Notes under the pieces: generated by a model | Seen by the model: the letters and a program-made list of their open reading frames with translations, nothing else | The model's database searches: none | Told to the model about the DNA's origin: nothing | Program-made: the position numbers and the translations under genes | DNA from: Candidatus Saccharimonadales bacterium | Lineage (GTDB): Bacteria > Patescibacteriota > Saccharimonadia > Saccharimonadales > EFPC-124 | Direction: 5' to 3' | Assembly: GCA_035457485.1 (NCBI GenBank) | Contig: DATIBO010000006.1 | Location: 498,659-562,658 of the forward strand | DNA: 64,000 bases | Shown here: one piece after another, positions 1 to 47,400 of the stretch | Layout: each line of letters opens with the position of its first letter | Position numbering within the stretch: position 1 is the stretch's first letter

Positions 1-531
1 GCCTTGGGTGTAGCTATTGCTGAACAAGGCCACACACTTTTAACTGGGGCAACTAGCGGATTGCCACAGTATGCGGCTCGAGGCGCCAAGGACCAAGGTG
101 GACTATCGGTTGGATTTTCGCCGGCCGGGTCGATTCGCGAACATGTAAAATCCTATAGACTGCCCGTAAAAGAATTTGACTACATAAATTTTACCAACAT
201 GGACTACGTTGGTCGCGACACTTACTTGGTGAGATCGAGCGATGCTGTAATCACGGTTGGCGGCAGAAGTGGTAGCTTGCATGAATTTAGCACTGCGATT
301 GAGAGCCACAAAATCTGCGGCATCCTATTAGGTAGTGGCGGTGTGGCGGATTTTATACCAACCTTACTGGATAAAATTCAAATTCACGCAAAAAAAGACG
401 ACATTATCTTTGATACTGATCCAGCCCGCCTAATAAAAACAATTATAGCTAGGTTGGACAAGGAGTATGCCGACTTTAAAGACGAAATCAAGAGTCTTGA
501 GGATCGTCCTAAGAAATCTTTGCGCGGGTAA
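1..531 (+). CDS. LOG/TIGR00725-like (SLOG Rossmann-fold) protein, 5' end outside window
   Basis: The frame is open from base 1 to TAA 529-531. HTLLTGATSGLPQYAARGA...DAVITVGGRSGSLHEFSTAI resembles LOG/DprA-type nucleotide-binding proteins. Codon usage is native (low GC). Confidence 0.55.
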   Translation, partial: ALGVAIAEQGHTLLTGATSGLPQYAARGAKDQGGLSVGFSPAGSIREHVKSYRLPVKEFDYINFTNMDYVGRDTYLVRSSDAVITVGGRSGSLHEFSTAIESHKICGILLGSGGVADFIPTLLDKIQIHAKKDDIIFDTDPARLIKTIIARLDKEYADFKDEIKSLEDRPKKSLRG

Positions 532-547
532 TAATAATTGCGGTATG

Positions 548-572
548 GCGGAGCTCTCGATGAGAGCTCCGC
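548..572 (-). terminator. GC-rich hairpin terminator of cassette 1 (no T-tract)
   Basis: GCGGAGCTCT / AGAGCTCCGC form a 10-bp perfect stem with a 5-nt loop, about 30 nt after the stop of the last peptide ORF. Confidence 0.5.
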
Positions 573-603
573 GTGTTGCTAGAGGTCGAACTGAGCTTCC
601 GAA

Positions 604-738
604 TCAGCTGAAGGAGCGGATGATCAGCAGGCCGCCAACCACGATCAGGACTGCCAGACCCATGACGAGCAGTAGGGGCACTGTTCGGATCCAGTCACGT
701 GGGGTCAGCTTCTTTGACCTGGATTCCTTGCTTGCCAC
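604..738 (-). CDS. small membrane peptide, 44 aa (third ORF of cassette 1, GTG start)
   Basis: Hand translation: (M)ASKESRSKKLTPRDWIRTVPLLLVMGLAVLIVVGGLLIIRSFS*. It is below the 60-aa track cutoff and starts 1 nt after the upstream stop. Third positions are G/C-rich and there is one TM helix. Confidence 0.45.
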   Translation of the reverse strand: MASKESRSKKLTPRDWIRTVPLLLVMGLAVLIVVGGLLIIRSFS

Positions 739-739
739 G

Positions 740-901
740 TCACCACCCACCCAAGGTGTAGCCCCAGGCGATGATGCCGATGCTCAGCAGCAGGCCGCAG
801 ACGCCACACCACTGGAACGGGTACGTCTGGAGCGAGCCCCAGAGCCAGCTCAGCAGCCGACGCGGGTAGTACAGCACGATCTCGAGACCGGGCATAGTCA
901 T
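740..901 (-). CDS. small membrane peptide, 53 aa (second ORF of cassette 1)
   Basis: MTMPGLEIVLYYPRRLLSWLWGSLQTYPFQWCGVCGLLLSIGIIAWGYTLGGW*. ATGA overlaps the upstream stop at 898-901. It is the same frame as track ORF 740-925, and the alternative start is ATG 895. Confidence 0.5.
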   Translation of the reverse strand: MTMPGLEIVLYYPRRLLSWLWGSLQTYPFQWCGVCGLLLSIGIIAWGYTLGGW

Positions 902-1014
902 GCTCCCATCAGGTTGTGGATCCATCCACCTAAGCTGGCGGCGATCCCTTCGGTCAGGGCGACCGAAATCAACATTGTGATGACGGTCGAGCGGAATGTG
1001 CGGAAGGCCCGCAT
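898..1014 (-). CDS. small hydrophobic peptide, 38 aa (first ORF of cassette 1)
   Basis: MRAFRTFRSTVITMLISVALTEGIAASLGGWIHNLMGA*. The ATG lies 6 nt after GAGGAGGTG, and third positions are mostly G/C. Confidence 0.45.
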   Translation of the reverse strand: MRAFRTFRSTVITMLISVALTEGIAASLGGWIHNLMGA

Positions 1015-1165
1015 CTGCGCCACCTCCTCGTAGCTAGGCTACTATACCACTTTTAGGTCACATGGTCTATAGTTGAATATGATCAAATTTTAACCAACTT
1101 TAAACATCTGTCGGACGGCACCATGCATACCTTAACAGGTTAGCGTTTTTAATGTATTACAGATG

Positions 1166-1180: not shown

Positions 1181-3148
1181 ATGACTGGCTCATTTAAGTT
1201 AGTTTCTAAATATCAACCGACAGGCGACCAGCCAACTGCTATCGCTCAGCTTGTTGATGGTTTAAAAAACGGCAAAAAAGAGCAAACTCTGCTTGGTGTA
1301 ACAGGCAGTGGTAAAACGTTCACGATGGCCAATATTGTGGCGCAGCGCCAAGTTCCAACCTTGGTGCTTTGCCATAACAAAACTTTAGCTGCGCAGCTCT
1401 ATAGCGAGTTTAAGCAGTTCTTTCCCGAGGCCGAAGTTCATTATTTTGTAAGTTACTTTGATTACTATCAGCCTGAGGCGTACATGCCTTCGAGCGATGT
1501 TTATATAGAGAAAGACAGTAAGATAAACGAAGAAATCGACCGGTTGCGACACGCCGCAACCAGCGCGCTTTTAACTCGCCGCGATGTTTTGATCGTTGCG
1601 AGCGTGAGTTGTATTTACGGTATTGGATCTGTTGAAGATTATGGTCAGATGGCTATTACTGTCAAAAAGGGAGAACAACGTCGTCAGGATAAACTTTTGC
1701 GCTGGTTAAGCGATATTCAATATACGCGCAATGATATTGATTTTCATCGCAGTACTTTTAGGGTGCGCGGCGATGTTTTAGACGTGTTTCCGGCTGGCAG
1801 TGAGACTGCGTATCGAATTGAATTTTTCGGTGACGAAGTTGACAGGATTACGAATATCGATCCGCTGACAGGGGAAATTATAAAACAGGTTGACCAAGTT
1901 ACAATCTTTCCGGGAAGTCACTATGTGACGCCACGCGAAAAGCTTAACGTTGCGATCGAAAAAATCCGCAAAGAATCCGAAGAACGGGTTAAACTTTTTG
2001 AAAGTCAAGGTAAGCTTCTTGAGGCGCAACGACTACAGCAACGCACTAAGTTCGACCTTGAAATGCTGGAGGAGACAGGGTTTGTAAAAGGCATCGAAAA
2101 CTATAGCCGTTATTTAACAAATCGCGCGCCAGGCGAACAACCTGCTACTTTGATGGATTACTTTCCTGACGATTTTTTGATGTTTGTGGATGAATCGCAC
2201 ATGACTTTGCCGCAGGTTCGTGGCATGTACAATGGTGACCGCGCCCGCAAAGAAGTTTTAGTGGATTACGGCTTTAGGTTGCCTAGTGCGCTCGATAACC
2301 GGCCGCTAACTTTTACGGAGTTTGAGCGCCACGTTAACCAGGTAGTTTACGTTAGTGCAACGCCTGCCGAGTACGAACTAGGTCGCAGTGGCGAACCGGC
2401 ACAACAAATTATTCGCCCAACCGGATTGCTCGACCCACCAATACAAATCCGCAAAATCGATGGCCAGATCGACGACTTGATTGGCGAAATTAAAGACACT
2501 ATAGCAAAAAATCAACGTGTTTTAGTTACAACTTTAACTAAGCGTATGGCCGAAGATCTAACCGAATATCTTAGCGATCTGAACATCAAAGCCACCTACG
2601 TACATTCAGATGTTGATACTTTAGAACGTAGTGATATTCTGCGAGATTTGCGACTTGGAGTTTACGATGTTTTGGTGGGAATTAACTTGTTGCGCGAAGG
2701 TCTGGATTTGCCAGAGGTTAGTTTGGTTGCAATCATGGACGCCGACAAGGAGGGCTTTTTGCGTTCGGCGCCAGCACTTATCCAAACTGTTGGCCGTGCC
2801 GCTAGACACGTCGATGGTCGGGTTATTATGTACGCCGATGTCATTACAAAAAGTATTCAGCAAACCCTAGACGAAACCACTCGTCGCCGCAAAATTCAAG
2901 ATGCCTACAATAAAAAACACGGAATTACTCCGACGGGAGTTAGTAAAGAAATAGAAGAAGGTTTGCGTGCGGTTATTCCTAAAGAAGCCCAAATGGTTAA
3001 GCGTGATATTAACAAGATTCCCAAAGAGGAATATGCTCGAGTCATCAAGGATCTTACGGCTGAAATGGATTTAGCCGCTGCGAATTTGCAGTTTGAAACG
3101 GCTGCCGAATTACGTGATTTGATAAATGAACTTAAATCAAAACAGTAG
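1181..3148 (+). CDS. uvrB: excinuclease ABC subunit B
   Basis: 655 aa with Walker [11 protein letters not shown], helicase motifs and a C-terminal UVR domain ([11 protein letters not shown]). Confidence 0.95.
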
Positions 3149-3248
3149 TTTAGATCGTTGATATTGTAAACTCTTCTGCTGGTCGTAAAATGTGTCCATC
3201 TCACCAAGAGATGCGTTTTAGAGGCTACGATCACCGAGGAGGTGTTTC

Positions 3249-3377
3249 ATGAAGATCATCGCCAAGATTGTGTCGCGCTTCGGTGCGCTGCTCCGGGCCG
3301 ATTGCACCTGCGCATGCTGGCAGTGTACTGTTCAGTCCTCGCACTGTCGCAACAGGTCCAACGGCTGCGTCTACTGA
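3249..3377 (+). CDS. 42-aa cysteine-rich peptide
   Basis: Hand translation: MKIIAKIVSRFGALLRADCTCACWQCTVQSSHCRNRSNGCVY*. It has 7 Cys in the last 24 residues. The ATG lies 4 nt after GAGGAGGTG, and 34/42 third positions are G/C. It is below the track cutoff. Confidence 0.5.
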   Translation: MKIIAKIVSRFGALLRADCTCACWQCTVQSSHCRNRSNGCVY

Positions 3378-3390
3378 TCCTCTATCTGTC

Positions 3391-3428
3391 TGGTGGCAGT
3401 CTCGTGTATGTTCACGGGGCTGCCACCA
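3391..3428 (+). terminator. hairpin terminator of cassette 2 (no T-tract)
   Basis: TGGTGGCAG (3391-3399) pairs with CTGCCACCA (3420-3428), with inner CGTG/CACG pairs. Confidence 0.45.
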
Positions 3429-3469
3429 CGCCTACCAACTTTTAATAATCGAAATTTTATTTTATAATA

Positions 3470-3790
3470 TAGTTGCAACATCGAGACGGGAGCAGTTCGT
3501 GGTTTACTTGAAGGGCAAACCGGGAGTGGATTTCGCGGTTTGTGTCTGTGGCTGCAGGGTTTGTTTGCCGCCGATTTTTGGGCGTCAGCCCGAGACACAT
3601 TGCGCCGAAGCAACTACGGGATGTATGTTTATCGTTCCGAAAGAGGAGGACTCGCAAGAGGCTTACATTCTGCGTCGCACGATCACAGCTCCAACTCGCT
3701 AAGCGATCCGCCCTAGGGTCGAGTCAGGGTTGCGCTTTGCTTAAGGCTTAGTGCGCTCAGGCGGTTGTAGGCGCCGCTATATAAAATGCC
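3470..3790 (+). ncRNA. candidate structured non-coding RNA, family unassigned
   Basis: About 320 nt have no credible ORF and are GC-elevated. A TATAAT at 3463-3468 precedes the block. Stems include CAAACCG/CGGTTTG (3516-3542), GTGTCT..GGCTG/CAGCC..AGACAC (3542-3598) and a CTC-GCAA-GAG tetraloop. gatC has its own promoter downstream, so this is not simply its leader. Confidence 0.2.
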
Positions 3791-3851: not shown

Positions 3852-4142
3852 ATGAGCAAAATTACTAGCAATGAAGTGCGTAGAATTGCGGCGCTTGCAA
3901 AAATTGCAATTACCGACAAAGAAGCCGAGAAATTCACGGATGAATTGGCTTCTATTCTAAAGTATGTAGAGCAGCTCGATTCAGTTGACACCGAAGGACT
4001 GGAACCAACATATCAGGTTACGGGCTTGGTTAACGTCAATCGAAAAGATGAGCTCCAAAATTACGGCGTAGATCAACAAGGTTTACTAAAAAATGTTCCT
4101 CAAACCAAAGATAACTATATTGAAGTCCCAAAGGTTCTATGA
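3852..4142 (+). CDS. gatC: Asp/Glu-tRNA amidotransferase subunit C
   Basis: MSKITSNEVRRIAALAKIAITDKEAEKF... is a typical GatC N-terminus. The start is moved from track 3786 to ATG 3852, and the stop overlaps the gatA start. Confidence 0.85.
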   Translation: MSKITSNEVRRIAALAKIAITDKEAEKFTDELASILKYVEQLDSVDTEGLEPTYQVTGLVNVNRKDELQNYGVDQQGLLKNVPQTKDNYIEVPKVL

Positions 4143-7484: not shown

Positions 7485-8375
7485 ATGAGGTTACCAACTA
7501 AAGCTGTAATTGCAGCCGCCGGGCTGGGCACGCGTTTCTTGCCGCAAACTAAGGCAATGCCAAAAGAGATGCTGCCAATAGTAGACAAACCGGTTATTCA
7601 GATAATTGTTGAACAACTCGTAGAAGCGGGCGTAACGGATGTAATCATTGTTACTGGATCTACAAAACGAGCAGTGGAAGATCATTTCGACCGCTCTGAC
7701 GAGCTCGAGCATGAGCTCCGCGCAAAAGGTAAAGACGATTTTGCGGATCAAATTAAAGAAATTGCTGAACTAGCTAACTTTGTTTATGTTCGTCAAAAAG
7801 GAACTCCAAAAGGTACGGCCCGACCCGTTTTAAACGCTAAACACTTAATAGGCGCAGATGAACCGTTTTTTGCCGTTTACGCCGATGACTTTTTTAGATC
7901 GAAAACTCCTGAACCGGTTCAGCTTCTAGAGGTTTTTAAAAAAACCGGAAGGCCGGTCGTTTCGTTTGGAAAAGTCGAGCCGGCTGAGGTAAAGCGCTAC
8001 GGAATCGCCGAAGTTGCCGAATATATTGACGATAACTCGTTCCGCCTAAAGCGCTTGGTTGAAAAACCAGATCCGAAAGCTAGCCCGTCTAATTTGGCGG
8101 TAGCGGGTTGCAGTATTTTGACTCCAGATATTTTTCCGATTTTAGCTAAAGAACAAACCGGTGTTGGCGGTGAGATAATTTTAACTGAGGCAGTAGGCGA
8201 GCTTGCTGAAACTACGCATGTCTATGGTTGCGTTACCGAAGGCATTTGGCACGACGCCGGTGATAAGTCTCGCTATTTGCAGGCAATTGTCGATTATGCC
8301 TTAGTGGATCCAAAACTAGCGCCGGAATTCCGTAGCTATTTAACTAAGCGATTAAAGCAAGAACCGAAGCAATAA
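7485..8375 (+). CDS. galU: UTP--glucose-1-phosphate uridylyltransferase
   Basis: AVIAAAGLGTRFLPQTKAMPKEMLPIVDKP nucleotidyltransferase motif; SD GGAGGG is upstream. Confidence 0.85.
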   Translation: MRLPTKAVIAAAGLGTRFLPQTKAMPKEMLPIVDKPVIQIIVEQLVEAGVTDVIIVTGSTKRAVEDHFDRSDELEHELRAKGKDDFADQIKEIAELANFVYVRQKGTPKGTARPVLNAKHLIGADEPFFAVYADDFFRSKTPEPVQLLEVFKKTGRPVVSFGKVEPAEVKRYGIAEVAEYIDDNSFRLKRLVEKPDPKASPSNLAVAGCSILTPDIFPILAKEQTGVGGEIILTEAVGELAETTHVYGCVTEGIWHDAGDKSRYLQAIVDYALVDPKLAPEFRSYLTKRLKQEPKQ

Positions 8376-12300: not shown

Positions 12301-12973
12301 CGATGCATACTTCAGCGAGCAGACTATGCCTATATCGAATTTGGCCAAAGAAATGGACGGAAAGACTGCGATGGTTGGCGGAGTTATTAATGACTCTCGC
12401 GTTATTAACACAAAAAGTGGCAGTAAAATGGCTTTCGTAAAACTCGAAGACAAAGCCGGCGAGATGGAGATCATAGTATTCCCTAAGCTTTATGAGGAAA
12501 TTTCCGAAAAGCTCGTCCAGGACGCTGTGGTTAAAGTGAAAGGTAAAATCAACGCCAAGGACCGCGATGGCAATCCGACTGATGACGTAAAAATTATCGC
12601 CGAGGAAATAATTTTTGTAACCGACGACGAGCTCGATAACTACAAATCAACTGGCCGCAATATGCGATTACCGCAGACAAAGCGTTTGAATCTTGAGCCG
12701 AAATCTAAAAAAAAGCTTGAACTTTATACGTATGTCCCAGTCGAAGAGAAAAAGCCGCGCTTGTTTGTACACGTAAAAGATCCGTCGAATAATGAGGCGC
12801 TAGTTAAAGTTAAGCAAGTTTTTAACGAATGGCCAGGATCGCATGAAGTGGTTTTGGTTTTGGGTGAAGATAAAAAATCAGCGATAAAAATGCCTTTTAA
12901 AGTTGACCCGCAAGAAGATCTGATGGAAAGTTTGAGTGAGCTGCTGGGTACGGAGTGTGTCGCGGTTAAGTAA
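9332..12973 (+). CDS. dnaE: DNA polymerase III alpha subunit
   Basis: 1213 aa with PHP domain HLHNHTHYSVLDG, a polymerase core and an OB fold. GTG start after GGGAG. Confidence 0.95.
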   Translation: MSEQTPVLEAKDFVHLHNHTHYSVLDGLQKVPEMLDRVKDLGMEAVAITDHGVLSGAIEFYKEATARGIKPIIGIETYVAARKLTDKDPVKDKARYHLILLAMNNKGYENLMRMATTASLDGYYYKPRIDHDLLEKYNEGIICLSACAGSELGENLRADQDEKAYEIAKWYKNLFGDRYYIEVQDHGHPDHPMKWDEQVKLNQKLFKLAADLGIKTVLTSDAHYAAPADKDAHEILLCVQTGAFLSDQDRFSLKDFDLFVEDPKSAIARWGADHASSIRTSKEIADRCEIKFEFDKILIPEFPVPEGQTEKTFLDDLVHRGLVDRYTNMSREDAFKMTIEQARKIIPPHVLERTDFELGVIDGMGFNGYMLIVQDFINWGKDQGIIFGPGRGSAAGSIIAYALRITDLDPLKYGLLFERFLNPDRISMPDIDVDIQDNRRDEVIEYCSNKYGKDRVSNIVTFGKMAARAAVRDVARVLQVPYAEADKLAKMIPAPVQGRHIPLKVSIEKDQDLKAEYENNQTAKRVIDLASRLEGTIRSHGVHACGVVIAPGELVQYIPLEMAQKGVVATQFPMGQIEELGLLKMDFLGLSNLTVIKNALRIIKKIEDVDIDLGKIPLDDLKTFELLARGDTTGVFQFESAGMKRYLRDLKPNEFDDVIAMGALYRPGPLSAGLTDSFIKRKNGLEKVSFAHPLMEGALKNTFGVLVYQEQVMQISRDVCGFTGGEADTLRKAIGKKKLDVMEKMQVKFIEGAVKNGVPQAVIEKFWKDLLGFADYCFNKSHSACYGLISYWTAYLKAHFPGPFMAALMTSDQDDTDRLAIEIAECRRADLQVLTPDINQSFAEFGTVPGTNQIRFGLNAVKNVGTNAVEEILRAREEGKFKSIEDFLKRVNVRIVNRKNLESLVKAGAFDSLADRTDLLYNMDTILAFAHKIQKEAASGQADLFGSLLDEMIPALKLDPAPTRTSDREMLLWERELLGLYLSAHPLDKYDAYFSEQTMPISNLAKEMDGKTAMVGGVINDSRVINTKSGSKMAFVKLEDKAGEMEIIVFPKLYEEISEKLVQDAVVKVKGKINAKDRDGNPTDDVKIIAEEIIFVTDDELDNYKSTGRNMRLPQTKRLNLEPKSKKKLELYTYVPVEEKKPRLFVHVKDPSNNEALVKVKQVFNEWPGSHEVVLVLGEDKKSAIKMPFKVDPQEDLMESLSELLGTECVAVK

Positions 12974-13046
12974 TAAATTTGACTATTGCGCTCAAAACTG
13001 TTAGTTTAATCATTGCCCAAAGAAGTACTCACGAAGGAGGTGGCCA

Positions 13047-13700
13047 ATGGCCGCCAGAATCCTGCGGATGCAGGGCGTTCACTCCGACGACCGTCGGACG
13101 ATCTCGGAGGTCGACGTACCGACCGAGACCGGCTTCGGCATCGGTCGCATGACGCTGCTCGAGATCAACGCTCCGGTCGACGGTAAGCCGGTGACGCTGG
13201 GAGACCACTACCACATGGAGGACCGTGAGCGGTTCCTGCTGACGCGTGGTCGTGGTGTTCTGACCAGCTGCCACGTGAGCCCGGTCGGCCAGCTGGTCGG
13301 CCCGCTCAAGGTGGACTCGGTTCAGGCCGGCGACGTGATCGTGATTGAGCCCTTCGTGGCCCACACGTTCGTGTTCGACGGGCCGGCCACACTGGTCTGC
13401 GTCTCGTCGATGACCTTCGACCCGAAGGACACTGAGGTCCGCAAGCTGATGCTCCCGCCGGCCAGTGCTCGCATGATGCACTACCTGCGCGAGCTCGCGC
13501 TCACCGAGCGCATCACGCCGTGGGACGTGGCCTACTACAGCTTCCACGGGGAGCTGCAGGTCACGGTCAACGCGGCGGGCACGCTGGTGGTCAGCGACAA
13601 CAGCGGCGAGGGAGCCGTGACGCTCAACTTCAACGAGGGCAACCTCGAGGAAGTTCTGGCTAAGGTCGCCGAGATCGTGCGGGTCCCGTCTGTGAACTGA
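13047..13700 (+). CDS. cupin-fold protein with C-terminal extension
   Basis: 217 aa. The cupin motifs are GDHYHMEDRERFLLTRG and AGDVIVIEPFVAHTF. GC3 is very high. Confidence 0.6.
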   Translation: MAARILRMQGVHSDDRRTISEVDVPTETGFGIGRMTLLEINAPVDGKPVTLGDHYHMEDRERFLLTRGRGVLTSCHVSPVGQLVGPLKVDSVQAGDVIVIEPFVAHTFVFDGPATLVCVSSMTFDPKDTEVRKLMLPPASARMMHYLRELALTERITPWDVAYYSFHGELQVTVNAAGTLVVSDNSGEGAVTLNFNEGNLEEVLAKVAEIVRVPSVN

Positions 13701-13719
13701 ACGACAACTTCATAGGGCA

Positions 13720-13746
13720 GGCCTGGTACTCACGCAGTACCGGGCC
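13720..13746 (+). terminator. hairpin terminator of cassette 3 (no T-tract)
   Basis: GGCCTGGTACT-cacgc-AGTACCGGGCC forms an 11-bp stem with one G.T pair. Confidence 0.45.
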
Positions 13747-13757
13747 TCGCTCAGAGC

Positions 13758-14735
13758 TTATCTAATAAATCCGGCTGAACCAGCCAAAACGAGCCCAACA
13801 ATTACCGCAATTACCGCTAAATCAATAAGTGGATGTACCAAAATAAAGTGCGTGCTGTGCCGCCAACCTGCCACAATTAATTTTCGGTGCGTTATAGCAA
13901 AGCCAATTACGGCGGCAGTAATCACCCCAAGACTCGCGTAAACTGCCCAACTTGCATTACCACTCAGCAAGTTTTGCAAATTAGTAACTCTTGTGGGGGC
14001 GGCTACGGTAACTTTGGGTTCTTCGGTCTTGTCTTCGTTTACAACCTCGGGAGCGGGTGTGGTGGTTGGTTCGGCCGCGGACTCCACTGGGACCGGCGCG
14101 GGCTCCGCCTCGGGTGCTGTGGCTTGGGCTTGTGCGACAACTGGTGCTGGTGTTGGCTCCGGAGTAGGGGCCGGTGGCGCTGCTTGAGTGCCGTAAAAGG
14201 CTGCTACTACAGTGTACTGGCCGCTTTGATAGTTTGATCCATTGGTTATTCCAAAACCCATTTCTTTATAATCGCCTAAAATGTTGGCTTTGTGACCGGG
14301 GCTGTTCATCCAGGCGTCTACCATTTCAGCGCTGTCAGCAAAACCATAAGCTAGGTTCTCGCCTGCATGAATGTAGTTGTATCCTGCGGTGTCAAAAAAG
14401 TACCAGGGCTCAGTGCCATCTGGTGCGGTGTGAGCCCAGTAGTTATTTGCAACCATGTGGTTAGCTTTAGCCTGCGCTCCATTGTTGAGCTGGCTATTTA
14501 CACTTAAAGGTGCTAGACCATTTTCGGCTCTTTTTTGATTGGTCAAATTGGCTAGCTCACCAATACTTACGCTAACAGCATAGGCTAAAACGTTGCCCGG
14601 TGTTGTTTGTGCTAACCATGTAAATTGAATAGCTATCAGCGCAGCTGCCATTCCAAAGAATATGGTCATTCTGTGGCGATGCATTTTTTTGACTGTTTGT
14701 TTATGCGCGGATTTTGATTTAGGCATTTTAAACAA
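13758..14735 (-). CDS. CAP/SCP (YkwD-like) domain protein with Pro/Ala/Thr linker and C-terminal TM segments
   Basis: NQKRAENGLAPL...NYWAHT...MNSPGHKANIL CAP-domain motifs, an N-terminal signal anchor, a PAPTPEPTPAP linker and a hydrophobic C-terminus. Confidence 0.75.
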   Translation of the reverse strand: MFKMPKSKSAHKQTVKKMHRHRMTIFFGMAAALIAIQFTWLAQTTPGNVLAYAVSVSIGELANLTNQKRAENGLAPLSVNSQLNNGAQAKANHMVANNYWAHTAPDGTEPWYFFDTAGYNYIHAGENLAYGFADSAEMVDAWMNSPGHKANILGDYKEMGFGITNGSNYQSGQYTVVAAFYGTQAAPPAPTPEPTPAPVVAQAQATAPEAEPAPVPVESAAEPTTTPAPEVVNEDKTEEPKVTVAAPTRVTNLQNLLSGNASWAVYASLGVITAAVIGFAITHRKLIVAGWRHSTHFILVHPLIDLAVIAVIVGLVLAGSAGFIR

Positions 14736-15295: not shown

Positions 15296-16912
15296 ATGGC
15301 AGCCGATGATCAGGCTAAATTTAGAGCTGAGGACGAATTTAATACTCAACGCAGGGCGGGCTTACTTGGCTTGCAGTATTACGATACCGTTGGGGTTGTT
15401 CAAAAAGCACAACTTTTTCCGTCCACGCTAACCGTCCAGGAAATGCACAAAGGACGGATTGTTCCACTTAGCGACGGTAACGACGAAGCTGCTCTAATTT
15501 TCGGCATCACAGTTTCTACTCCGCAGCAACTATTAAACGAGCTGCGTGATCGTTTTAATGGGCGAGTCGTTAGATTTTTAATGATCTCAGACTCTGGCTT
15601 TAAAGAGTTCATGCAACGGTATGATCCGCCAAAAAAAGTAGTTTACCAAGATGTAAAAATCGCCAAAGAAGGCGACAACGCGGCGATCGCCGAGGTTTCA
15701 AAAACTTTAGACTCTGTGCGTTCTGACGATATTTTAAATTATCTAATAACTCAGGCCGATAAACTTGGCGCATCCGACATTCATCTTGAAAATCAACAGG
15801 GGAACTTGAGAGTAAGACTTCGCGTTGATGGCGCACTGCATCCGGTAGCTACTCTTTCACGCGATAAATATCGAGTTTTATTGGCGTCAATTGCATCACG
15901 AGGCAATGTGAGTACTGCGGCAACTGATGCGCAAACTGGTCACATGCAACAAGAGATCCGTAATCCTGATGGATCAACCCGAACCTTAAACATGCGTATC
16001 GAAACCGTTCCAACGATCTATGGCCAAGACGTCGTCATGCGATTATTCAATTTTGATCCCCGGCTCCTTAAGTTAGATTATCTAGGATTAAATCAGCAGC
16101 AACTAAAAACCATCCAAGATGTTGTTGAGCATCCGCATGGAATGGTGATGGTTGTCGGGCCTACTGGTTCCGGTAAATCAACCACGCTTTACAGCATGAT
16201 TAACGGTTTAAATACTACTGATCGCAAGATTTTGACACTCGAAGACCCGGTCGAATTAGCTGTGCCGGGTGTGATTCAGATTCCGGTTTCTACCGAAAGC
16301 GGCGATAGTTTTGCCGACAAGCTGCGTGCTGTGTTGCGACTTGACCCCGATATAATTATGGTAGGCGAAATTCGAGATATAGATACGGCGAAGACCGCCA
16401 TTCAGGCCTCAATCACCGGACATTTGGTGTTGAGTACATTCCATGCGAGTACAGCGGCCACAGCTTTTAGCAGAATTATAGATATGATTGGGCAGAACCC
16501 AATCTTCTCGACGGCGATCCGTCTAGTTATTGGCCAACGTTTAGTCCGTAAATTAGATGAAAAAACACGTGTAGCCTATAAGCCCGACGAGGCAACTAAA
16601 AAATATATCAACGAAGTGCTGAGTGATTTGCCCAAGAATGTCGCAAAGCCAGATGTCGACAATTTGACCTTATATAAACCCGGATCTTCGGCTGAAAATC
16701 CATTTGGGTATCGTGGCCGATTGGTGATAATGGAGCAAATGGCAATCACCGATAAAGTGCAGGCGTATTTGCGCGGCGATGTCGCTGATGTGGATTCGGT
16801 AATGATTGAGAAAACTGCCAAAGCACAAGGTATGGTAACCATGTTGCAGGACGGTGTGTTGAAGGCTTGTGCCGGAGTCACTACGCTCGAAGAGATCAAC
16901 AGAGTAATTTAA
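15296..16912 (+). CDS. pilB: type IV pilus / type II secretion ATPase (PilB/GspE family)
   Basis: Walker A GPTGSGKST, Asp/His boxes and a GspE N-terminal domain. The start is moved from 15227 to ATG 15296. Confidence 0.85.
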   Translation: MAADDQAKFRAEDEFNTQRRAGLLGLQYYDTVGVVQKAQLFPSTLTVQEMHKGRIVPLSDGNDEAALIFGITVSTPQQLLNELRDRFNGRVVRFLMISDSGFKEFMQRYDPPKKVVYQDVKIAKEGDNAAIAEVSKTLDSVRSDDILNYLITQADKLGASDIHLENQQGNLRVRLRVDGALHPVATLSRDKYRVLLASIASRGNVSTAATDAQTGHMQQEIRNPDGSTRTLNMRIETVPTIYGQDVVMRLFNFDPRLLKLDYLGLNQQQLKTIQDVVEHPHGMVMVVGPTGSGKSTTLYSMINGLNTTDRKILTLEDPVELAVPGVIQIPVSTESGDSFADKLRAVLRLDPDIIMVGEIRDIDTAKTAIQASITGHLVLSTFHASTAATAFSRIIDMIGQNPIFSTAIRLVIGQRLVRKLDEKTRVAYKPDEATKKYINEVLSDLPKNVAKPDVDNLTLYKPGSSAENPFGYRGRLVIMEQMAITDKVQAYLRGDVADVDSVMIEKTAKAQGMVTMLQDGVLKACAGVTTLEEINRVI

Positions 16913-16920
16913 AATGAAAC

Positions 16921-16944
16921 GCCCCGCTCGTAAATGAGCGGGGC
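16921..16944. terminator. bidirectional hairpin between pilB and cassette 4
   Basis: GCCCCGCTC-gtaaat-GAGCGGGGC forms a 9-bp stem. It is flanked by TTT on the plus strand and TTT-containing sequence on the minus strand. Confidence 0.5.
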
Positions 16945-17225
16945 TTTGGGCCCGGGTGAGGGCTCGTGTTTCAGGACTTGTGGTGGTGGCGGGTGGTGTA
17001 GATGTGGACCGTCACGATGCCGATGCTGACGCAGATGATCGCGCTGATCACCCGCACGACACCATCCAGCGACGGGAACTCCGTCTTGACCTGACCACCG
17101 GCCCACGTCACGAGGACGATGAGGGCCAGATTCGCCAGCCCGTAGCCGGCGATCGTCAGGATCTTGCTGCCACGCTTGGGCGTGTTCGCCATGATGTCTC
17201 CGATGTTCGAACGGGACAATTCCTT
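16945..17225 (-). other. GC-rich foreign-looking cassette 4 (2-TM protein)
   Basis: Line 17041-17100 has 39/60 G+C, flanked by AT-rich native DNA. Confidence 0.6.
16971..17192 (-). CDS. small two-TM membrane protein (73 aa)
   Basis: MANTPKRGSKILTIAGYGLANLALIVLVTWAGG...VISAIICVSIGIVTVHIYTTRHHHKS. The ATG lies 4 nt after GGAGAC; the track start 17219 is an upstream in-frame alternative. Confidence 0.5.
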   Translation of the reverse strand: MANTPKRGSKILTIAGYGLANLALIVLVTWAGGQVKTEFPSLDGVVRVISAIICVSIGIVTVHIYTTRHHHKS

Positions 17226-17236
17226 GAAACCATATA

Positions 17237-17265
17237 TTTATAACATAAAATGTAAATCAAGTCAA
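17237..17265 (-). promoter_or_regulatory. promoter TTGACT-17-TATAAA reading into cassette 4
   Basis: The -35 box is at 17260-17265 (inside the last codons of the upstream gene) and the -10 box at 17237-17242, on the minus strand. Confidence 0.4.
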
Positions 17266-26559: not shown

Positions 26560-27529
26560 AACTAATAACGTTATTAAGAACGTTCTATATACGATCTTAA
26601 TTTGTTTGAGCTTCTATAGTGCATGGTGGATTTTTACTCACGGCCAACAGTGGGTGGATTTTTGGCGTTATCGGTTTTACTCTCCGCCTGCCGAGGTGGT
26701 CGCGATTGCTGATAAGGTCGAAATGACAGACGAGGCGCGTTATATATTTTATGTCTCTGATCCGGCAGTTGAGACTGCTGACGATTTTAACTCACATTGT
26801 TCCGGTCTAGAAGGCGAGCAGACGGCTGTTTTGGGCTGCTATAGGTTGCAAAAAATATTCCTATATGATGTTACTGATCCGCGACTTTACGGAATTAAAG
26901 AGGTAACAGCAGCACATGAAATGCTGCATGCGGTTTATGAACGCTTGCCGCTAGACGAAAAGCTGCAAGTAAATAAGTTAATCCAGGAGGAATTGCCAAA
27001 AATTCAGGATGAGCACGTTAAAGAACTCGCTGAACTTTACGGGAAAGACGGTCTGGACGTTTTGTGGAACGAAATGCATTCGGTTTTAGGCAGTGAGTTT
27101 AGATCACTTTCGCCCGAACTCGAACAACACTATGCTAAATACTTTAAGGATCGCAGCAAAGTAGTTACCTTGTCAGAATCTTATCAATCTGTATTTAAGG
27201 CATCTAAGGCGCGTTTGAGTGATTATGATCGGCAGTTGAATGACATTAAAGTTGCGATTGATGCCGATTATGCTGAAATTGATAGCCGCATCAATACTAT
27301 CAACGCAGAATCAAGCAGGCTGAATAATTTACGAGCTACTGATCCTGAAGCTTACAATTTAGCAGTTCCTAGCTATAATGCTTTGGTCCAGGGATATAAC
27401 GCCCTGGTTGTTGAAACGCGCGGTTTGATTGATAGATATAATGCTTTGGTCGAAGCGCGTAATAGCGAAGCAGCGACGCAAAATAGCTTGTATAACAGTT
27501 TGAATAGTCATTACGAGCCGATTCAATAA
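26501..27529 (+). CDS. TM-anchored protein with HExxH motif (putative zinc metallopeptidase)
   Basis: 342 aa with a TM helix (LYTILICLSFYSAWWIF) and AAHEMLHAVYE. The ATG start overlaps the clpC 3' end by 59 nt, so the start is uncertain. Confidence 0.5.
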   Translation: MSLPLQQNEESSVLPESESKTNNVIKNVLYTILICLSFYSAWWIFTHGQQWVDFWRYRFYSPPAEVVAIADKVEMTDEARYIFYVSDPAVETADDFNSHCSGLEGEQTAVLGCYRLQKIFLYDVTDPRLYGIKEVTAAHEMLHAVYERLPLDEKLQVNKLIQEELPKIQDEHVKELAELYGKDGLDVLWNEMHSVLGSEFRSLSPELEQHYAKYFKDRSKVVTLSESYQSVFKASKARLSDYDRQLNDIKVAIDADYAEIDSRINTINAESSRLNNLRATDPEAYNLAVPSYNALVQGYNALVVETRGLIDRYNALVEARNSEAATQNSLYNSLNSHYEPIQ

Positions 27530-27543
27530 GTTTATTGTTGTTC

Positions 27544-27576
27544 GGGGGCTGTAGCGTCATCTCTGCTACAGCCCCC
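27544..27576. terminator. 12-bp GC hairpin between convergent genes (cassette 5 end)
   Basis: GGGGGCTGTAGC-gtcatctct-GCTACAGCCCCC. Confidence 0.5.
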
Positions 27577-27598
27577 GTGCACCTTGTGGGCGGTCAGC

Positions 27599-28522
27599 TC
27601 ACAGCGCGTTTCGCATCTCCAGGAACTTGGCGACGAGCTTGTCCGCCAGGCTCGGGTGCCAGTTGTTACTGTTGAGCAGCGCGAGTGTCATCGCCACTTC
27701 GGTCAGCGAGTTGCTGCTCAGTGCGCGGACGGCCGCCAGTCGAGCTTCGGCGTAGGACTCGATCGGACTCTCCCAGTTGAAGTCGCTCTGCTGGGTGTGC
27801 TTGACGTGCCGGGCGACCAGGTCGTTCCATCCCTCGGGCCGTGGCAGTTCGGTGACGCGCGCCGGGAAGAACTCCCCGACATTTCTGCCACCGATCCCCA
27901 TCCGCCGGTAGGCGAGGTAGCGCTCGATGTTTCGCACCAGGTTGAACAGCTCGAGGAAGGTCTCGCTGTCAGCCTCGTTGATGCCTTCGAGCAACTCGTC
28001 GTACCGGAACTTGAGGGCCAGGTTGAGGGTGGTATCGAGCCAGTCGTGCGGCAGCTGGTAGCACTCGAGCAGGATCACGGTAGCCTCGCTGAGGCCAGTG
28101 TAGGTCCAGCCCGTCCGCCTCGCCAGTTCGATCAGCTTCAGAACGCTGGCGAGGGATTCCTTCGCCGTTCCCGGGTTGGCCTGCCATTGCGCCAGGAGAT
28201 CGCCGAACTGCTGCATCACCTCATCGGCCTTCTGCATGGCCTTGTAGTGATCCTGGAGCGTGTAGTACTTCGAGAGATCGGTCGGCTTGGCCACATGCGC
28301 AATGCCGTACCACGCCGACGGGTTGTCGAACAGGTCGCTCATCGCGCCCCGGTCGTCCGACTCAGCTCGCCCGATCAGCCGCAGGAACTCGGCCAGTCGC
28401 TCAGCCGTCTCAGCCTGTGAAGCTGCCCTGGTCTGAGCGATCGTCTTGTTCCTCTTGCTGAGCGCGAACATTGCCGCAACGAACACGGCAACAAGTAGCA
28501 GTGCTACTAAGACCCAAACCAT
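27599..28522 (-). CDS. hypothetical N-terminally TM-anchored all-helical protein (307 aa)
   Basis: MVWVLVALLLVAVFVAAMFAL... followed by about 280 aa of soluble sequence. The start is set at the ATG preceded by GAGGTGG; the 85 upstream codons of track ORF 27599-28777 lie in AT-rich native DNA and overlap radA. Confidence 0.55.
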   Translation of the reverse strand: MVWVLVALLLVAVFVAAMFALSKRNKTIAQTRAASQAETAERLAEFLRLIGRAESDDRGAMSDLFDNPSAWYGIAHVAKPTDLSKYYTLQDHYKAMQKADEVMQQFGDLLAQWQANPGTAKESLASVLKLIELARRTGWTYTGLSEATVILLECYQLPHDWLDTTLNLALKFRYDELLEGINEADSETFLELFNLVRNIERYLAYRRMGIGGRNVGEFFPARVTELPRPEGWNDLVARHVKHTQQSDFNWESPIESYAEARLAAVRALSSNSLTEVAMTLALLNSNNWHPSLADKLVAKFLEMRNAL

Positions 28523-28556
28523 TGGGTCCACCTCACTTTCGCTTGGGTGCTTGCAA

Positions 28557-38425: not shown

Positions 38426-38509
38426 GCGCGAGTGGTGGAATGGTAGACACGCTGGTCTTAGGAACCAGTGCCGTAAGGCGTGAAGGTTCAAGTCCTTTCT
38501 CGCGCACCA
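38426..38509 (+). tRNA. tRNA-Leu (anticodon UAG), CCA encoded
   Basis: Hand-folded: acceptor GCGCGAG/CTCGCGC, D stem GTG/CAC, anticodon stem CTGGT/ACCAG with loop CTTAGGA, long variable arm GCC-gtaa-GGC, and T arm GAAGG-TTCAAGT-CCTTT. Confidence 0.9.
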
Positions 38510-38593: not shown

Positions 38594-38622
38594 TCGACCA
38601 AACCTGTTTTATATGGTATAAT
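38594..38622 (+). promoter_or_regulatory. promoter TCGACC-17-(TGG)TATAAT reading into cassette 6
   Basis: An extended -10 box TGGTATAAT at 38614-38622 and a -35 box at 38594-38599, in AT-rich DNA just upstream of the GC-rich block. Confidence 0.45.
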
Positions 38623-38670
38623 TTGGATCCAGACGAAAGTTGACCCTTTTAGTTTTTAGGAGCTGGTTAC

Positions 38671-39504
38671 GTGTTCGACCGTAAAATTCAGCGCATTGCG
38701 CTGGGCGACGATGTTGTCGTTGCGGTGTCGCGTCGTGACGAGTCCGAGCCCGCTGCCTACAGCATGCGACGTACCGGACCCGACGCGCACCACGCGGCCC
38801 GCAACATCGCCGACTTCGCTGGTCGCGTTGGTTTCGACGTGAACCGGCTGGTCATGCCCCGCAGGTGGCCGCATCTTGGTCGAGTCATGGTCGTGAGTAA
38901 TGACGACCTGGTTCCGGACCCGGTGAGCGGCCTCAACCCCAATTTGCCGAAGGCCGACAAGCCGGGTTTCGAGCATTCGTGCGATGGACTGATCACGATG
39001 GCTCACGGTCTCTACCTGGGCGCCCAGGGTGCTGACTGCCCAATGCTCTACCTGTATGACTCGGTTCTCGGGATTATCGGCGCCATTCACTGTGGGTGGA
39101 AGCCGGTGGCACAGCACATTGTGACCACGGCCGTACGACAGTTCGAGTGGCTGGGTTCCAACCCGATGAACATCCGAGCGTTCGTATCGGCCGGCGCCGG
39201 CGATAACGTCTACGAGTTCGCCATCGACGACGCCTCGCGCCTGCTGCTTGAAGCGCAGGGCCGCGTCGCCGACTTCGAGGCACTCATGGCGCCGCATGGA
39301 ACCAAGCCCGGCACGAAGGTCTTGCGGCTCAATGCTCTGGTCGTCCACGACCTGACAAGAGCTGGAGTTCCGTTGTCGAACATCCTGTGCGACTGGCGGA
39401 GCTGCATCGAAGATCCGACGCTCCACAGCTATCGCCGTGACGGCGGTCCAGACATGGCCACGTCGCTGCACGGACTGGGCATCGGCGTGATCTTTCTGAA
39501 CTGA
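38671..39504 (+). CDS. pgeF: YfiH/PgeF-family (DUF152, Cu-oxidase_4) protein
   Basis: 277 aa. It aligns by eye with E. coli YfiH: PHLGRVMVV (QVHG region), GADCPMLYLYD...GAIHCGWKP (ADC.P / H.GW.G) and C...LHSYRRDG (FSYRRD). The His-Cys-His triad is retained. Confidence 0.75.
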   Translation: MFDRKIQRIALGDDVVVAVSRRDESEPAAYSMRRTGPDAHHAARNIADFAGRVGFDVNRLVMPRRWPHLGRVMVVSNDDLVPDPVSGLNPNLPKADKPGFEHSCDGLITMAHGLYLGAQGADCPMLYLYDSVLGIIGAIHCGWKPVAQHIVTTAVRQFEWLGSNPMNIRAFVSAGAGDNVYEFAIDDASRLLLEAQGRVADFEALMAPHGTKPGTKVLRLNALVVHDLTRAGVPLSNILCDWRSCIEDPTLHSYRRDGGPDMATSLHGLGIGVIFLN

Positions 39505-39527
39505 ACAACTTCACATCGTCGTCAAGA

Positions 39528-39557
39528 GGCCGGGGCGCAGTAAAAGGTGCCCCGGCC
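39528..39557 (+). terminator. hairpin terminator of cassette 6 (no T-tract)
   Basis: GGCCGGGGC-gcagtaaaaggt-GCCCCGGCC. Confidence 0.45.
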
Positions 39558-39753
39558 ACAATCCATGAAATCATTTCGGGATAAGTATTAATCTTTCTCG
39601 CCGCCTGCAAAAGTTATCTCAACGCCGCCTGTGGTGCGCTATGAATTAGAGTTTGATTTTAGAACGAGTAGTACTGTTATAATATTGTATGACTAAGTTA
39701 GTAGGTATATAGTAGCCGGCGTGAATATCTGAACTAAGTAGTTAAGGATTGCT

Positions 39754-44426: not shown

Positions 44427-47400
44427 ATGGAGGGGTCTGGGGTATTTATGCGTGAAGAAAAAATTAAACTAAGTAAGTTAAAATCTTATTTTTATAAAGC
44501 GTCGTTTTTTTGTATGGCGCTAATGTCGGTTTTATCGCTTGTGCCGACAGATGCGATAAAAGCAATCGCTCCTCCACATACAAACATCGAAGGTAGCGCT
44601 GAACCTATTGACGCCTCAAACATAGCCCCAATAAAAGAGACCGATAAAACTGAGGTCCCTGCGGCTGATTACGGTAAAGTTCCATTTGCCGACGGAATGG
44701 GTGCGCAAAACGCGCCCGAGCAAAATAAGAAAGATCGCAAAGAGCTGTTTGAGGACGAAACAAAACGTACAGCTTTTTCGAACGAATATGTAAATAGCGA
44801 CGGAACTCGCACGATAAAAAGCTCGCCGGTTGATGCAATTAACTACAAAGAGGGTGATACTTGGCGCAAAATCGAGCATGTTGTAAACGATGATGAGGCG
44901 TACGTCCCAAGTAAAAACCTTGATGATTCCTCTTTTTGGGATTTTTTGCCCTGGACAAATAAGTCTAAAGCCGTAGACGCACAGGCGGGTCGAACAAAAG
45001 CTAAGCTAAGGCCGTTTGCCGAAGGTATTAGTTACGAAATGGGCGGTAAAACTTTTACACTTGAGCCGGTTGATGCGCGCAATGTTAAACCTAGAATTTC
45101 TACTGTTGCCGACGGGCGTGTCACGCTTATAACCTATGTGGATGCCTGGCCGGGCGTGGATGTTCTATATGAGTTGCACGGTGAATCGGTGAAAGAGTCA
45201 ATAATTATTAAAAACGCAAATGCGCGTACAGATTATGAGTTTAAGGTATCAGGCGCGACGCTTTTCGAGCATCCAACTATAAAAGGCGCTTTGGCGATTG
45301 AGGGGCTAGATCCAGAATTTTACATGATCTCTCCGCTTAGTGTGAATGTAAACAAGCAAGGTTTAACTACCGAGCAAGTTGCGGCGCAAACAACAGATGG
45401 TTCAAAAATTAAGGTTACCCTTGACCAAAAGTGGTTTTCAAGTCAGCCACAACAAAGTTTTCCAATAGTTATAGACCCCACTGTTTCTGTTAACTCTGCC
45501 GAGTATGGCTTTTATTCCTATAAATCCGATGGCTATTCTTGCACGGATGTACAATGCGGTGGTCCGAATGTTGGAGCGCTGTATGACAGTAGTTGGAAGA
45601 ATTGGCGCAGCCTAGTTAGGTTGCCATTTGAGCAGCTACGCGGAAAGCAATTGTTGTTTGCCGAGCTTGGAATGGACATGGCCCAGAGACCATATTGGAC
45701 AGGCACAACCGACGCCAAGACCATTTATACAACTTACGCTCAGTGTATCGGCTACCAATGCGCAAGTAACATTTGGCACAGTAGCGCGAGCATGGCTACA
45801 GGTGTTTGGATGAACATTACAAACACTATTCAAGGGATGATCGATGCTAATCAATGGGGTGGTTGGTTGATATTGTGGGGCGAAGAAGGCAACTCGACTT
45901 CTTACAAACAGCTAGAATATAGCACAATGGAGATTCGGCTCACCTATACAACCCCAGCACCTATAGCTCGGCCGGTTGAACCTTCAAATCAACAGGTAGT
46001 TGTAACAACCCAGCCAAACTTAAAAGTTGGCACAGTAGCCGATGCCGAGGGTGAGCAAGTTGAGTATAACTTTAAGCTTGCAACTGGGGCTGACGCTGAA
46101 TCTGGCACGGTTGCTGCTTCGGGTTGGTCGCCGTCTAATTTATGGACGGTTCCCGACGGTGTTTTACAAGATGGCGTGACGTATTATTGGCATACTTACA
46201 CTAAAGATGGGAACGTACAGACAAATCCGGATTGGGTTAGCTCGTTTAAAGTGGATATGAGAACCGGCAAAGACAGCACACAGGCTTACGATACGGTTGG
46301 TCCACTTAGTGTAGATATCGCTACCGGTAATTTAACTACTTCTAACGCTAGTCATTCTGTAAGTGCTTTAGGGGGATCGCTTGGCGTAGGAATGTCATAC
46401 AACTCGCCAATGCAATCTCGCCAAGGTTTGTACGGCGAATATTGGAACAACACAAACTTTAGTGGCAACCCTGTTTTGGGGCGTGTTGACCCTGAGGTTG
46501 ATTTTAAATGGGGTAACGGTTCGCCGGCTACAGGCGCGGTTAATGCAGATAACTTTGCTGTTCGTTGGACTGGCTATTTTGTAGCGCCAAGCACGGGTGA
46601 CTTTTACATTGGGGCAGATGTCGATGATTCTTATAACATTTATTTAAATAACCAACTTCATCATAGCCGCAGTGGCGCCGGTAGCGAATTTGGCGCAACG
46701 CCAGTTAGCTTAACAGAAGGCCAGATCATACCGATTAAGGTAGAAATGGTCGAAAATTACGGCTTAGCGGTTATGAGTTTGCGAATGAAAAAGGCCGGCG
46801 GTGAACCGCAAATTATTCCTAGCTCAATGTTGCAGACCGGCGTTAGACAAGTGGGTGCGCCGCATGGCTTGATTGGGCGTTACTACTATGATTCTGGTAA
46901 CCATAACTTTCCAACTAATCCAAACGAAGCGTTTTTGGTTCGAAACGACAGTTTAATATCTTTTAACTGGGGTTCTGGTTCTCCAGTTCCTAGCGGTCCA
47001 GCCAACGATTTCTTAGTTAGATGGACGGGTTATGTGACAGTTCCGGAAACAGGTGTATACCAATTTGGTTCAAGGGCTGACGATGGTGTTAGGATAAAAC
47101 TTGGAATTGGGTCGGGAGGATCCGATCAGACAGTTCATGATAAGTGGATTGACTCGAGTGCAGTTGATAGTTGGGGTGGCGATGTTAGCTTGACTGCCGG
47201 ACAGGTAATTCCGATAACAGTCGAGTATTACGAATACGGCGGCGATGCTGTTATGGAGCTAAAAGTTCGTCGCGCTGCAGGTGTAGGTGAACAAACTTTG
47301 CCATCAACATGGTTAATTCCTAGTACTATGGCTTTGCCAGCCGGCTGGAGCTTAAGCGTAGATCCTGATGGCGGTTTAAGCTACGACCGAATGAAATTGG

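Follow-up and report, generated by a model that had tools for sequence, protein, structure and literature searches.

The DNA analyzed here (the window) is a stretch of 64,000 nucleotides (nt) of contig DATIBO010000006.1 (positions 498,659 to 562,658, forward strand) from the genome of a Candidatus Saccharimonadales bacterium (GCA_035457485.1). Near its left end, between a gene of SLOG cluster 4 and uvrB, lies a short GC-rich islet. Reading the minus strand of positions 1–1800 and listing its open reading frames (ORFs) revealed that this islet (541–1035) contains three back-to-back small ORFs of 38, 53 (or 51), and 44 amino acids (aa), referred to below as peptides 1, 2, and 3. The best explanation, and one that we consider fairly likely, is that the islet forms an accessory transcription unit, complete in itself and foreign in composition, which encodes three very small membrane proteins and sits in a slot of fast turnover between SLOG and uvrB. 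The coordinates of all features are collected in Table 1.

The coding signature of the three frames was examined at the level of base composition, codon usage, and hydropathy. The GC contents at codon positions one, two, and three (GC1/2/3) are 0.46/0.54/0.74 for peptide 1, 0.52/0.52/0.89 for peptide 2, and 0.58/0.44/0.73 for peptide 3, and native genes have a GC3 of 0.42–0.46. In sliding windows along the islet, the phase of highest GC moves from the frame of peptide 1 to that of peptide 2 near position 900 and returns near 740. A codon-usage log-odds model was trained on 14 other GC-rich island genes from the window and its relatives, none of which is homologous to the trio. The codon log-likelihood ratios (LLRs) were +11.4, +24.4, and +17.1 bits for peptides 1, 2, and 3, respectively (total +52.8); in each segment the proposed frame ranked first of six and contained no stops, and none of 5000 first-order Markov resamples reached 52.8 bits (maximum 13.2). 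The best 19-aa Kyte-Doolittle (KD) windows scored 1.75, 1.81, and 3.13 for the three peptides, which gives each of them one segment of transmembrane (TM) grade; a KD value of 1.74 or above was found in just 3.4% of 44-aa off-frame windows from comparable GC-rich DNA. Taken together, GC3, codon model, and KD windows indicate that the three minus-strand frames very probably code for tiny membrane peptides. This agrees with the first-pass annotation, an earlier reading of the DNA letters, which had proposed three tightly spaced single-TM peptides at this position.

The ORFs are packed closely. Peptides 1 and 2 meet in an ATGA overlap (901–898) or, if peptide 2 starts at 895, in the arrangement TGA-ct-ATG. 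At the junction of peptides 2 and 3, the order is TGA-c-GTG (742–736), with 1 nt between stop and start; GTG 750 offers peptide 3 an alternative start. Both junctions lie within the spacing by which coupled operons are recognized (overlap, or a gap of no more than 5 nt between ORFs). On the frame map, peptides 1 and 3 share a common frame (1014 − 738 = 276) and only peptide 2 is shifted; the frame of peptides 1 and 3 is interrupted by stops at 900, 852, and 786.

Pairing to a generic anti-Shine-Dalgarno sequence was calculated for the region ahead of each start. The Shine-Dalgarno (SD) sequence of peptide 1, GAGGAGGTG, pairs at −16.3 kcal/mol, and none of 775 internal control sites reaches −12 kcal/mol. 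Ahead of peptide 2, a GGGAG element (−6.5 kcal/mol) stands 6 nt from ATG 895 and directly abuts ATG 901; because there is a 6-nt spacer to the former start and none to the latter, ATG 895 (51 aa) appears to be the better-supported start of peptide 2. Peptide 3 is preceded by an SD-like element, GGGTGGGTGGTGA, at −10.1 kcal/mol, and fewer than 4% of the control sites reach −8 kcal/mol. The SD of peptide 1, its ATG at 1014, the ATGA overlap, and the GTG one nucleotide after the stop of peptide 2 had all been pointed out in the first-pass annotation, and each was found again when the minus strand was read. As for native genes, anti-SD pairing is weak (−2 to −4 kcal/mol) at the starts of uvrB, gatC, and gatA (1160–1180, 3765–3785, and 4118–4138, respectively), and it reaches −8.9 kcal/mol at the start of dnaE. 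With these four native starts compared, the strong SD of peptide 1 may be a foreign trait in its own right.

The trio lies between a promoter-like site and a hairpin. The promoter-like site was found by a consensus scan and sits in AT-rich DNA just upstream of the islet. A hairpin between peptide 3 and the convergent SLOG gene had been described in the first-pass annotation as well; it is real, and its stem measures 11 bp rather than the 10 bp given there. The segment 520–610, when folded, has a free energy of −28.7 kcal/mol (z = −3.1), and the hairpin is probably a bidirectional terminator. On the plus strand, the consensus scan found no promoter-like site in 400–1300, a negative that cannot rule out an antisense RNA.

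The peptides differ in their layout. Peptide 1 has a basic N-terminus followed by one hydrophobic segment; in peptide 2, a WCGVCG motif stands where the TM segment begins; in peptide 3, a very hydrophobic TM segment, LLLVMGLAVLIVVGGLLII, comes after a charged N-terminus. An (S/T)LGGW motif stands directly behind the hydrophobic segment of both peptide 1 and peptide 2. This very short motif could be an interfacial tryptophan anchor or a remnant of paralogy. The 51-aa form of peptide 2 (the NCBI start is ATG 895) is listed in GenBank as a hypothetical protein (HSE29512.1, locus VLA77_02925), so the claim that the trio is invisible to gene calling does not hold for peptide 2; it holds for peptides 1 and 3, which were in none of the protein collections checked.

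By its UvrB, the window belongs to Candidatus Saccharibacteria (TM7), and we then compared the site with that of related genomes. The gap between SLOG and uvrB is about 110 nt or less in most Saccharibacteria and 650 nt in the window; in some distant relatives, the site is filled by unrelated genes on the plus strand with native GC. Closer relatives (L089, L093, L094, and L096) were recovered by a metagenome scan with the SLOG protein; UvrB of L089, L094, and L096 is approximately 87% identical to that of the window. The SLOG–uvrB gaps of these four relatives measure 1.15–1.85 kb at 55–60% GC, and each gap contains two or three minus-strand genes with a GC3 of roughly 0.64–0.85, whose products are 120–180-aa proteins with N-terminal TM or lipoprotein-type signals. 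The window and the relatives have a common layout: the SLOG stop, a GC-rich hairpin, the cassette, an AT-rich divergent promoter region with an SD, and uvrB. Strong hairpins occupy the equivalent position in all four relatives. The cargo is different: the trio has no similarity to the relatives' cassettes at either the protein or the DNA level, and the relatives' own cassette proteins are 29–37% identical where the flanks are 91–95% identical. For example, L094 and L096 share 95% identity in SLOG and 91% in UvrB, and of their two pairs of cassette proteins, one has 37% identity and the other shows no relationship. Since their flanks are conserved and their cargo is divergent, the slot turns over much faster than its flanks. 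The islet itself, with its atypical composition and its absence from the orthologous site in relatives, is foreign-looking and was presumably acquired horizontally. Neither its foreign look within a Saccharibacteria genome nor the turnover of its slot figured in the first-pass annotation. No mobility genes were found at the cassette, no direct repeat of more than 7 nt flanks it, and the islets have no repeats in common beyond chance.

The cassettes of the relatives fall into two families, both orphans, whose small proteins are exported or lipoprotein-like and have the motifs 'QYGWP' and 'ENGW'. One of these proteins has a lipobox (VGAVAC), and neither family has a Pfam match. In L096, a further GC-rich islet (7710–8264, plus strand, GC3 0.83) that encodes a 184-aa cupin-like protein lies directly downstream of uvrB, a hint that the far side of this gene holds a second slot.

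Searches for relatives of the trio covered protein, genome, and family collections. A word-indexed HMMER search with the concatenated trio returned no homologue, and a fused 135-aa query found no family among 1.84 billion representatives or 5.8 billion clusters. An exhaustive phmmer search of the 1.84 billion representatives gave a single true match, P0018, which is the window's own peptide 2. Two further candidates, P0019 and P0020, were rejected as relatives; they are Cys-rich repeat proteins that match by an 'AWGh.yGdW' motif alone. Scans of genome, viral (IMG/VR), and metagenome contigs yielded no relatives of the trio, nor did blastn and tblastn against the INPHARED phages (50,697 phage genomes) and plasmids, and there was no match in Pfam, NCBIfam, PHROGs, or PADLOC. 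At E ≤ 1, Pfam and NCBIfam gave two sub-threshold chance matches, both for peptide 3, and weak matches to PsaO among PDB sequences were set aside as hydrophobic noise. Because short peptides are rarely called and weak matches become insignificant in huge databases, the absence of the trio is informative for fairly close relatives alone.

Several observations weigh against three intact genes in one operon and are gathered here. The SD of peptide 2 is modest, with a pairing energy that 20% of the control sites match, and very few nucleotides separate the SD-like element of peptide 3 from its start. The hairpin is without a U-tract, and a terminator scan did not call it (no T-run). In the absence of homologues, neither the ratio of nonsynonymous to synonymous substitutions (dN/dS) nor covariation provides evidence that selection maintains the peptides. 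The genome is known from one sequencing run, and its two assemblies thus probably do not represent independent samples. The 14 other GC-rich cassette genes seen in the clade are all single ORFs of 72–300 aa, and the absence of small-ORF operons among them fits a broken single gene equally well. Such a gene, the main rival reading, would be a split gene or pseudogene whose membrane protein of three to four helices once measured about 135 aa, disrupted by two compensating frameshifts near 925–898 and 750–740. We regard it as unlikely, with points of some weight on its side: peptides 1 and 3 share their frame and the middle part alone is shifted, and the fused 135 aa fit the size of the 120–180-aa single genes in the slot of the relatives. 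The fused sequence also follows the positive-inside rule, and AlphaFold2 (AF2) predicts four helices for it, a model whose predicted template modeling (pTM) score of 0.35 is not decisive. Moreover, GC3 and codon signals would be inherited from the ancestral frame, and they cannot separate a split gene from an operon. The junctions speak against it. In a simulation with 13 comparable genes, a random indel gave a stop within 27 nt together with an adjacent ATG or GTG in the ancestral frame in 7.8% of cases, and two such tidy junctions would arise by chance in approximately 0.6%. SD-like elements also stand ahead of the second and third starts. The fused query found no family and no similarity to the cassette proteins of relatives. 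Finally, there are no homopolymer runs at the peptide junctions, and the window is identical, base for base, to the Logan assembly of run SRR25158331 over 7 kb that span the islet and both junctions.

The remaining alternatives concern the role and the coding status of the islet. The first-pass annotation had offered a holin-like or phage lysis module as one possibility. Small hydrophobic TM peptides in compositionally foreign DNA do resemble a phage-derived holin, lysis, or superinfection-exclusion module; this is a resemblance alone, and such a module is very unlikely here. No endolysin, integrase, or other phage gene lies nearby, the flanks being SLOG and uvrB, and neither the PHROGs and Pfam holin models nor the phage genomes of INPHARED (blastn, tblastn) and IMG/VR contain a match to the trio. 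The peptides are also shorter than typical holins and lack the charged C-terminal tail. A role in exclusion is partly contained in the explanation that we favor. The other suggestion of the first-pass annotation, small subunits of a transporter, can be broadened to accessory subunits of a transporter or respiratory complex of the KdpF, CydX, or AcrZ kind. Size and single-TM architecture are similar, and subunits of this type are normally co-operonic with their partner. The operon contains no transporter or respiratory-complex gene, a promoter-like site and a hairpin belong to the unit itself, and no hidden Markov model (HMM) of a known family matches it. Furthermore, the unit is absent from all relatives and therefore cannot serve a conserved complex, and we give this possibility very little credence. 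The least probable alternative is that the minus strand encodes no protein at all and that the islet is a plus-strand 188-aa gene, a structured non-coding RNA, or an assembly chimera. One gene caller did choose the plus-strand ORF, and high GC within AT-richer DNA can be the sign of an RNA gene. The plus-strand ORF, which the first-pass annotation took for a GC shadow, indeed behaves as one in composition and codon usage (Table 1). A 157-aa piece of it was deposited by another pipeline in a public protein set (P0001); neither a homologue beyond its own entry nor a family match in Pfam, NCBIfam, or PHROGs was found for it, and P0001 is probably a spurious entry. Regarding an RNA gene, Rfam gave no match at the gathering threshold or even at E = 10, ARAGORN detected no tRNA or transfer-messenger RNA (tmRNA) in the islet, and the fold z-scores of the islet (−1.4 and +0.2) are not significant. 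A chimera is at odds with the agreement of two assemblers across both junctions, and the analogous GC-rich cassettes that relatives have at this site make it less tenable.

If the islet is an accessory unit of three small membrane proteins, as we favor, its expression can be outlined as follows. Transcription would start approximately 7 nt past the TATAGT box. Ribosomes would load at the strong SD of peptide 1 and reinitiate at each junction, which would yield roughly equal amounts of three bitopic peptides, oriented N-in/C-out by the positive-inside rule. In the cytoplasmic membrane, into which they would insert, the peptides would probably associate. Both the coupling of translation and the membrane insertion are what we infer from the anatomy of the unit. 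For its role, we propose with low confidence an accessory envelope function; the peptides might modulate the membrane, or they might exclude or protect against phage, competitors, or the host. We consider such an envelope or protective role more likely than lysis or membership of a housekeeping complex, since the unit is not conserved, is foreign in composition, and has neither a partner gene nor phage surroundings, and since the other occupants of the slot encode envelope proteins. A bolder version, which we put forward as speculation and consider quite improbable, is that the trio is one allele of a lineage-specific cassette-exchange system in environmental Saccharibacteria, in which compact GC-rich envelope units are exchanged at fixed slots and come from a high-GC pool not yet sampled, which might be the actinobacterial host or mobile elements of that host, and that the peptides form a new hetero-oligomeric membrane complex for epibiont–host contact or for exclusion of phage or competitors.

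The islet is one of several. The window holds at least four further islets of 60–66% GC, each with a single gene (GC3 0.75–0.89), and all four carry a long antisense shadow ORF. The PgeF-like gene lies approximately 160 nt downstream of a tRNA-Leu gene (38426–38509), where the Logan assembly breaks. Its homologues, with 62–79% identity, occur in GC-rich islets among different neighbors on other contigs (L084 and L085), and the homologue on L085 adjoins a second GC-rich gene (68% GC) that encodes a Macro domain. Around uvrB, GC-rich islets are essentially confined to this small clade of Saccharibacteria. No donor was identified via the larger island proteins, which are orphans or at most 35% identical to plasmid-borne genes, and literature searches on the sequencing run and on GC-rich or hypervariable islands in Saccharibacteria found nothing relevant.

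Table 1. Features of the window (positions 1 to 64,000) and slot cassettes of related contigs
Feature	Position	Strand	Basis and remarks
GC-rich islet (cassette)	541–1035	−	61% GC, window 46%; composition profile and 50-nt GC scan
Peptide 1, 38 aa, MRAFRTFRSTVITMLISVALTEGIAASLGGWIHNLMGA	898–1014	−	Translation; ATG 1014, stop TGA 900–898
Peptide 2, 53 aa (ATG 901) or 51 aa (ATG 895)	740–901	−	Translation; stop TGA 742–740
Peptide 3, 44 aa	604–738	−	Translation; GTG 738, stop 606–604
Shine-Dalgarno of peptide 1, GAGGAGGTG	1020–1028	−	Anti-SD pairing (see text); 5–6 nt spacer to ATG 1014
Promoter-like site, TAGACC-17 nt-TATAGT, TG extended −10	1041–1069	−	Consensus scan; pattern match, putative function
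Hairpin, perfect 11-bp GC-rich stem, 3-nt loop	548–572		Between convergent SLOG gene and peptide 3
Antisense shadow ORF, 188 aa	467–1033	+	GC1/2/3 flat (0.58/0.53/0.63); codon LLR approximately −2 bits in total
SLOG cluster-4 (LDcluster4) gene, left flank	4–531	+	Pfam PF18306, E = 8e-26; native composition; beside uvrB in relatives too
uvrB, right flank	1181–3148	+	Pfam UvrB domains; native composition; 70–88% identity in Saccharibacteria relatives
Cupin-like protein, 217 aa	13047–13700	+	Islet 12950–13800
Small 2-TM protein, 72–82 aa	16971–17219	−	Islet 16850–17250
Protein of ~300 aa with N-terminal TM segment	27599–about 28500	−	Islet 27500–28550
PgeF/YfiH-like (Cu-oxidase_4) protein beside tRNA-Leu	38671–39504	+	Islet 38600–39600
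Slot cassettes of relatives	L094 4548–5570; L096 4565–5620; L093 761–1830; L089 4604–6232	− (all)	

Downstream of uvrB, gatCAB follows next in the window. The approximately 640 nt between uvrB and gatC (3149–3785) are ORF-poor and moderately GC-rich (~0.51–0.59 in places); a gene caller put a 67-aa ORF there, and the region has no clear coding phase and no Rfam match. It could be a decayed islet or an uncharacterized RNA. Farther along, a single ORF of 2590 aa occupies 44427–52199 on the plus strand.

If the peptides are truly made, the trio gives this phylum of obligate epibionts, whose envelope biology is poorly understood, an additional orphan family of small membrane proteins. Annotation also failed at the islet in two ways: one pipeline took the antisense shadow ORF for a gene, and a second listed just one of the three peptides. 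We consider the GC-rich cassettes at fixed slots a more interesting lead than the trio itself. A small Saccharibacteria clade carries many islets of a single gene or a single operon, with a GC3 of ~0.8 as against ~0.45 for the genome, and at least one of them sits in a fixed slot whose cargo turns over between flanks that are 91–95% identical. Through cassette turnover of this kind, ultra-small symbionts could acquire envelope functions and vary them.

Among known systems, the type I toxins (Hok, TisB, Fst, and Ibs) are also hydrophobic single-TM peptides of fewer than 55 aa on horizontally acquired DNA. However, they are usually encoded by a single ORF whose translation signals are occluded or weak and which is paired with an antisense RNA, whereas the trio consists of three coupled ORFs behind a very strong SD, with no antisense promoter-like site in our scan. 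Phage holins are small TM proteins as well, but the trio peptides are shorter than typical holins, their C-termini are short and without a charged tail, and they have no lysis-cassette context, PHROGs match, or phage homologue. Multi-peptide leaderless or two-peptide bacteriocin operons, such as those of aureocin A70, garvicin KS, and lactococcin G, likewise encode several very small peptides back to back in a short stretch of accessory DNA. Their products are cationic and amphipathic, are homologous to one another, and are accompanied by genes for export and immunity. The trio peptides, in contrast, have membrane-anchor segments (KD up to 3.1), they show no significant similarity to one another past the short LGGW motif, and their GG motifs are near the C-termini, not after a leader; neither an ABC transporter or immunity gene beside the trio nor a Pfam or NCBIfam bacteriocin match was found.

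The small bitopic membrane proteins KdpF, CydX, AcrZ, and MgtS are encoded by small ORFs too. Like them, the trio peptides have fewer than 55 aa and one TM helix each, are easily missed or mis-called, and, in the case of peptides 1 and 3, have a basic N-terminal flank; unlike them, they are encoded in tandem, in DNA of foreign composition, without a partner complex in the operon or a match to a family model. The slot itself recalls replacement-type flexible genomic islands, in which one site holds non-homologous envelope or surface cassettes in related strains. It is unlike these in being tiny (0.5–1.8 kb, one to three genes), in having cargo much more GC-rich than the host genome, in the lack of detected mobility genes or flanking repeats, and in the peptide trio, which is so far unique among its occupants. 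It resembles them in its conserved flanks, its non-homologous or highly diverged cargo, its exported or membrane products, and its atypical composition. Orphan in sequence, the trio belongs to a general kind that is already known, the small membrane proteins whose small ORFs lie on acquired DNA.

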